A stretch of 64,000 nucleotides of DNA from Antedon mediterranea (lineage: Eukaryota > Animalia > Echinodermata). The notes under the pieces are model-generated. The model worked only from the letters and a program-made list of their open reading frames with translations. It did no database searches and had not been told where the DNA came from. The DNA lies in contig NC_092671.1 in NCBI RefSeq assembly GCF_964355755.1, positions 27,788,070 to 27,852,069 of the forward strand, written 5' to 3'. Position 1 is the first letter of the stretch; every line of letters begins with the position of its first letter. This document shows positions 9,669 through 9,710 of the stretch, piece by piece. A program made the position numbers and the translations under genes.

Positions 9669-9710
<42 letters not shown>
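9669..9710 (+). other. 42-bp exact copy of the 28S H69 / R2 target region in the IGS
   Basis: AGCGCGGGTAAACGGCGGGAGTAACTATGACTCTCTTAAGGT is identical to 8253-8294. Confidence 0.97.

Follow-up and report, generated by a model that had tools for sequence, protein, structure and literature searches.

The rDNA array and its 3' spacer

The window, a stretch of 64,000 nucleotides of Antedon mediterranea DNA analysed over its full length, is made up of six tandem rDNA units of approximately 10.5 kb each (10,535–10,572 bp), and an Rfam gathering scan of the window returned rRNA only. In the first unit the 18S gene is found at 3182–4986, the 5.8S gene at 5307–5462 and the 28S gene at 5727–9410 on the + strand (RF02543, 3043 bits). 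The units are not clones of one another: 15 base or 1-bp differences, each confined to a single unit, were found within the 18S–28S part, and repeat counts also vary. The D7a region of the 28S gene has a GC content of 62%, a value that fits a 28S rRNA lacking a hidden break. The intergenic spacer extends over 4.3 kb; between 9782 and 13300 it contains modules of 300–365 bp separated by GCTAG-type 5-bp arrays, and the last module enters a TA-rich stretch followed by a run of five G residues near 13290, a pattern that resembles a Pol I start with upstream duplications of the spacer promoter.

A 42-bp sequence occurs 12 times in the window, in every case as an exact match on the + strand, with six occurrences in the 28S genes (starting at 8253, 18809, 29359, 39931, 50471 and 61007) and six in the spacers. 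The occurrence in the 28S gene of unit 1 (8253–8294) is the native target region of the retrotransposon R2 and the source of the spacer copy, which thus spans positions −41 to +1 relative to the R2 first-strand nick. The copies themselves lie at 9669–9710, 20225–20266, 30775–30816, 41347–41388, 51878–51919 and 62423–62464, and begin 258 bp 3' of the 28S end. An earlier note, made from the sequence alone, had described a 42/42 copy in the same orientation some 260 bp beyond the 28S gene in all six units, with flanks unrelated to 28S and with no other rRNA fragment of this size in the spacer, and each part of this description is borne out. When compared with rRNA using blastn-short the copy gives an E value of 1.5e-18, and the next-longest exact match between spacer and rRNA is only 12 bp. 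Ungapped identity between the flanks of the copy and those of the 28S site is 7/30 and 8/30 (8/30 on the right side), and in five of five tests local alignment of the flanks with 28S was no better than alignment of shuffled sequences, the observed score being reached by 465–1958 of 2000 shuffles; no decayed 28S sequence beyond the ends of the copy was detected in the flanks by these alignments. The six-unit alignment also agrees with the note that all six 28S genes are uninserted, and among the six units in the window the spacer copies are likewise free of insertions (0/6 at either site).

The copy sits within an ordered 3' spacer. Starting from the 28S end, this comprises a terminal hairpin, 117 bp of unique sequence, the tandem array (TTAACCATA)x10, 51 bp of pyrimidine-rich sequence, the copy, a further 15 bp, a run of 28 T residues (T28) and GCTAG-rich subrepeats. 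The terminal hairpin (9400–9434, + strand; −12.4 kcal/mol in a local fold) is likely to be a 3'-end processing or termination hairpin, as judged from the predicted structure. The unique start of the spacer (9411–9527, + strand) is identical in all six units, a further sample of this organism departing from it by two A>G changes, and the array (9528–9617, + strand) holds nine repeats rather than ten in one unit. The left flank of the copy (9618–9668, + strand) has C or T at 33 of 51 positions and is without 28S homology, and the right flank occupies 9711–9725 (+ strand); the block 9618–9725, which includes the copy and both flanks, is identical in 6/6 units. Within the copy a hairpin can be drawn at 9685–9704, which we take to correspond to helix 69 of 28S rRNA. 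When the copy and its flanks are folded together the result is unexceptional (z 0.96; 171/200 shuffles fold equally well), and another hairpin of the 3' spacer folds at −11.8 kcal/mol. The T28 run (9726–9753, + strand) is a candidate for the T-rich element of a Pol I terminator. Its length is exactly 28 in 6/6 units, which is unusually uniform for a homopolymer and may reflect either recent homogenization or consensus polishing. Read on the minus strand, 9726–9772 presents overlapping AATAAA signals that are followed after 5–9 bases by an A28 tract, which resembles the way a retro-copy ends; in AT-rich sequence such as this the arrangement may be due to chance.

The copy as a predicted R2 target

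Recognition of the R2 target has been worked out with insect and bird elements, not in this lineage. For R2Bm, the target has been defined as two motifs, RUM (−34 to −22) and RASIN (−6 to +1), and alteration of the +1 base abolishes cleavage (Wilkinson et al. 2023, PMC10499050). R2 proteins contact up to 40 bp of DNA upstream of the nick and melt about 10 bp around it (PMC13486585). The N-terminal domains of A-clade R2 bind upstream only, with ZF3-2 requiring −40 to −21 (PMC11204384), and those of the D-clade bind downstream too (PMC11204384, PMC12222951, PMC12180492).

Both motifs can be located in the copy. The RUM-equivalent (9676–9688, + strand) occupies −34 to −22 and keeps the central GC, departing from the consensus at −29 and −28 exactly as the native 28S site does; the RASIN-equivalent (9704–9710, + strand) occupies −6 to +1 at the native spacing from RUM and retains the +1 base, and the predicted nick falls between 9709 and 9710. 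The copy therefore shares both motifs, their spacing and the +1 base with the minimal target of R2Bm (PMC10499050), and the proposal that it covers the R2 footprint stands, given that RUM, RASIN and the reach of binding to −40 all lie inside it (PMC10499050, PMC13486585, PMC11204384). A scan for RUM and RASIN across the 10,556-bp unit was run with 2–3 mismatches allowed, as one mismatch excludes even the native 28S site, and on the + strand RASIN together with the central GC of RUM was found at two places only, the 28S site and the copy; on the minus strand a single weak site, carrying three mismatches, satisfies the RUM/RASIN rules as well. The 9-bp array at 9528–9617 also scored under a loose form of the rule, at six registers on the minus strand, but was rejected as an R2 target, as the central GC of RUM is missing and 45 of 1260 permutations of the repeat unit perform equally well.

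What the copy lacks is the downstream 28S sequence, from +2 onwards. The earlier note pointed to this loss, but the idea that it turns the copy into a non-productive trap is not supported by the behaviour of R2Bm: cleavage withstands single changes at +2 to +5, the stretch from +6 to +37 can be replaced with both cleavage and target-primed reverse transcription kept, and 3' homology is unnecessary for starting reverse transcription in vitro (PMC10499050). With RUM present and RASIN complete down to the essential +1 base, cleavage and insertion by R2 are predicted at the copy; as R2Bm tolerates changes to the downstream bases, the copy would be expected to accept insertions rather than to act as a dead trap. 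Other R2 proteins may be more demanding, as the copy offers no pairing for the 4-nt 3' tail used with avian A-clade R2 (PMC13486585), and the second subunit of a D-clade R2 would lack its binding site downstream (PMC11204384). Judged by its sequence, the copy would work like an R2 target and is not itself an R2 element. The R2 ribozyme, whose P1 stem uses 28S sequence (PMC3774820), cleaves itself on a G within a range of 0 to −36, in many cases at −28 and −36 (PMC3774820, PMC13486585). A G is present at both −36 and −28 of the copy, and an R2 inserted there would retain its ribozyme provided that Pol I transcription extends to this point.

Origin and maintenance of the copy

The 3' end of the copy points to R2 as its origin. 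For a random piece of rRNA, only 2 of 5,645 positions (about 0.04%) would place the 3' end at the R2 nick or at the base that follows; this chance rises to about 0.2% if either end and a tolerance of ±2 are allowed, and by simple arithmetic to about 1.6% when all of some 15 known element sites are taken into account. Given an end-point probability of 0.04–0.2%, R2 is the likely maker of the copy. On balance, we lean towards the reading that the copy is a relic made by R2 and homogenized by concerted evolution, which today would be an incidental second landing site and not a selected defence. The proposed sequence of events would begin with nicking of a 28S gene by the R2 protein, after which the upstream 41 bases would be copied or excised as a unit, whether as the leader of 28S sequence on an R2 transcript or cDNA, by template jumping to the cut end, or as a stretch of about 40 bp shielded by bound R2 protein; indeed, after both nicks the protein has been reported to stay bound and to shield upstream DNA (PMC12180492, PMC13486585). 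This piece would then have entered the T-rich 3' spacer in a single unit, with the body of R2 lost or never copied, and unequal crossing-over would have fixed that unit type across the array. Persisting identity with 28S could reflect either a young event or occasional gene conversion from 28S. A resident R2 would, today, nick the copy and could insert there, sparing the 28S gene of that unit.

Parts of this scheme have precedent. R2 5' junctions have been shown to repeat 21–26 nt of upstream 28S sequence, to which 7 or 113 nt are added in the horseshoe crab (PMC3774820), off-target copies of melanogaster-type R1 bring 7–28 bp of upstream 28S along with them (PMC2718515), and non-functional element fragments reach fixation in the intergenic spacer by hitchhiking (PMC10257491). 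The whole 3' spacer, and not the copy alone, is invariant in 6/6 units, so fixation is not special to the copy. The fit is less good in other respects. The copy starts at −41 (−40 if the first base matches by chance) and its first G is at −40, outside the cleavage range of 0 to −36 given for the R2 ribozymes described in the literature cited (PMC3774820, PMC13486585), so the simplest leader model fits inexactly. No R2 remnant was found 3' of the copy, where there is no poly(A) on the + strand and only 15 bp precede T28 and the subrepeats; a search for a target-site duplication of at least 3 bp around the copy gave none, and the longest Met-initiated open reading frame in the spacer is 68 aa. 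Under a pure relic model the match at +1 also needs a chance of about 1 in 4.

The absence of R2 sequence beside the copy would also suit a capture that did not involve R2, whereby a break in the spacer was patched from 28S, or a cut was made by a piggyBac/Pokey-like element or a homing endonuclease, with the end at the R2 nick being coincidental. Two oddities at the junctions suggest repair: the 3' end of the copy, taken as its last six bases and the one that follows, is repeated at 9717–9723 (a recurrence of at least six was seen in 1775/100,000 shuffles), and the end of the left flank can pair with the right flank as a 6-bp inverted repeat (125/20,000 shuffles, or 1155/20,000 with G–T pairs allowed), all of these statistics being post hoc. 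Such short inverted and direct repeats fit microhomology-driven repair, and the 7-base recurrence, which resembles a repair scar, also speaks for the R2-made relic. However, a random piece would end where this one does with a probability of only 0.04–0.2%, and capture independent of R2 seems improbable to us. Cuts by Pokey at TTAA or by I-PpoI would, on the geometry that we assume for them, end 2–6 bases short of the observed end, which counts against those agents. It is less probable still that the copy is an assembly artefact, that is, a consensus error recurring in each unit. The copy junctions are taken from the assembly, and the T run of exactly 28 in every unit is more uniform than homopolymers usually are; against this, the units differ by their 15 private variants and in repeat counts, four sequencing runs of the same sample give indirect support in that they contain 85–90% of the words of 9170–9790, and clean, identical chimeric junctions in six units have no obvious technical source. 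An origin through R2 may also explain no more than where the copy came from, if the copy now forms part of a Pol I terminator or fork barrier, either by giving an RNA hairpin 21 bases before T28 or by providing a roadblock site for a Myb-type protein of the Reb1/TTF-I kind. Pol I termination has been reported to require a hairpin, a T-rich tract and a roadblock (PMC12366685). The hairpin of the copy (9685–9704, −6.2 kcal/mol) does lie between the pyrimidine-rich tract and T28. A 7-mer that we take to be a Reb1-like core occurs in the same direction at 9514 and 9673, both within the first 270 bp of the spacer, and is absent from the rest of the spacer. Yet the same 7-mer is present in 18S (3540) and in 28S (8257), where a roadblock would do harm, two other hairpins of the 3' spacer (−12.4 and −11.8 kcal/mol) are more stable than that of the copy, the region folds no better than shuffled sequence, and contig depth shows no drop before 9665 (contigs cannot show ends). 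A terminator has, moreover, no need of 42 exact bases that end at the R2 nick, and we regard this role as doubtful.

The alternative to which we give more weight, whilst still holding it to be unlikely, concerns maintenance: the copy may be a selected decoy or safe landing pad, kept because it diverts about half of new R2 insertions, or of R2-made breaks, from 28S. In the landing-pad version Pol I would transcribe an R2 lying in the 3' transcribed spacer together with the unit, and the ribozyme of that R2 could fold while 28S was still made, amounting to tolerance and not to a trap. The ends of the copy match the functional footprint (RUM at −34 to −22, RASIN to +1, binding to about −40) and fit a minimal target of about −40 to +1 without a decayed overhang, so that a selected site would explain both the ends and the +1 base without luck; the copy and the 28S site are the only + strand sites of their kind per unit, and all six copies have zero mismatches. 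R2 has been reported in echinoderms (PMC5035012, PMC10946416, PMC13188248), whose sequences the 18S of the window resembles, and a spacer target in Drosophila ananassae is really used by R1 (PMC2718515). Against selection, neither use nor diversion is visible in the six units of the window, with 0/6 spacer copies and likewise 0/6 28S sites inserted, although six units are a small sample. At a ratio of 1:1 a decoy would halve the damage at best, and it would benefit the array rather than the unit that carries it, so that selection should be weak. Concerted evolution puts any spacer variant into every unit, and therefore presence in all units is no proof of selection. A stronger form of the selected reading, and a rather improbable one, is that every rDNA unit carries a selected, minimal but complete R2 target in its transcribed 3' spacer, a host-encoded truce under which R2-made breaks at the copy might also drive recovery of rDNA copy number outside the coding region.

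Comparison with other samples and species bears on both transcription and constraint. An RNA-like run from another sample of the same organism (X8) covers the stretch 9170–9665, with even depth over the spacer as far as 9665, which is consistent with read-through, but its depth is 760 and 784 in the spacer vs 0.5–1.9 million in 28S, the spacer signal may be DNA carry-over, and that the run is RNA at all is a guess. The flank in X8 differs from the window by two substitutions in 115 bp, a rate at which 42 bases would by arithmetic be unchanged with a probability of 0.48; as identity is thus expected about half the time, it is no sign of constraint at that depth. Three further runs (X5, X11 and X14), which with X8 make up four of the 24 listed, matched only the 9-bp array of the 9170–9665 stretch, with 1, 2 and 2 short contigs, so their word shares of 0.73, 0.48 and 0.48 do not indicate kinship. 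One X8 contig matches 9402–9436 (35 bp) with long unlike sequence (255 letters) on each side, and is probably the 28S end of another organism or of a divergent rDNA type. Of two metagenome scans for 28S 3' ends, one gave no loci and the other gave four from other animals, with 76–87% identity at the 28S end; one (L001) stops at the gene, and the remaining three (L002, L003 and L004, reaching about 1.5, 0.35 and 2.6 kb behind the 28S end) contain no 28S piece in their spacers (0/3), an absence that fits the relic reading, three being too few for a base rate. At 60–400 of L002, where its 3' spacer begins, a unit of roughly 190 bp that takes in the terminal hairpin region is present as two related copies.

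Related cases and significance

The closest known parallel is found in D. ananassae, where a 22-bp R1 target lies in the intergenic spacer of some units and holds one R1A and seven R1B insertions (Stage and Eickbush 2009, PMC2718515). In both animals the target of a 28S retroelement has been duplicated into the rDNA spacer. The fly case, however, involves R1, 22 bp and only some units, and the spacer target is inserted, whereas here the site is that of R2, is 42 bp in length, is present in 6/6 units in the 3' transcribed spacer and is uninserted; the available part of the D. ananassae report proposes no decoy role for the R1 target (PMC2718515). The 5'-junction duplications and 28S leaders that arise through R2 mobility (Eickbush et al. 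2013, PMC3774820) are likewise stretches of 28S reaching upstream from the R2 site or from close by it, but these measure 21–28 nt, with longer ones rare, have their start between 0 and −36 and are attached to R2 within 28S, whereas the copy starts at −41 and is free-standing in the spacer. Retroelement-captured 28S sequence is also known from fish R2 families with a 28S-derived 3' UTR (Kojima et al. 2016, PMC5035012) and from SINE28 (PMC10946416); in those cases the 28S piece is inside a mobile element, whereas the copy is fixed in the repeat unit of the host. Searches of the openly accessible literature turned up no account that places a copy of the R2 site in a spacer or gives one the role of a decoy.

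How R2 persists in rDNA, and whether it harms or helps its host, has been described as an open question (PMC13580325, section 7). The copy places a natural second target beside each gene, and insertions into gene and copy, when compared, would show target choice in vivo, the value of the downstream bases and whether diversion occurs. If the copy is selected, it would represent a new form of tolerance by the host and could inform the design of gene insertion tools that spare 28S genes; if it is neutral, it would be a neat fossil trace of R2 at work and would cause some reads to be mis-mapped as ‘on-target’. Spacer copies of the targets of 28S elements may, as the R1 case in D. ananassae indicates, recur as a product of these elements.
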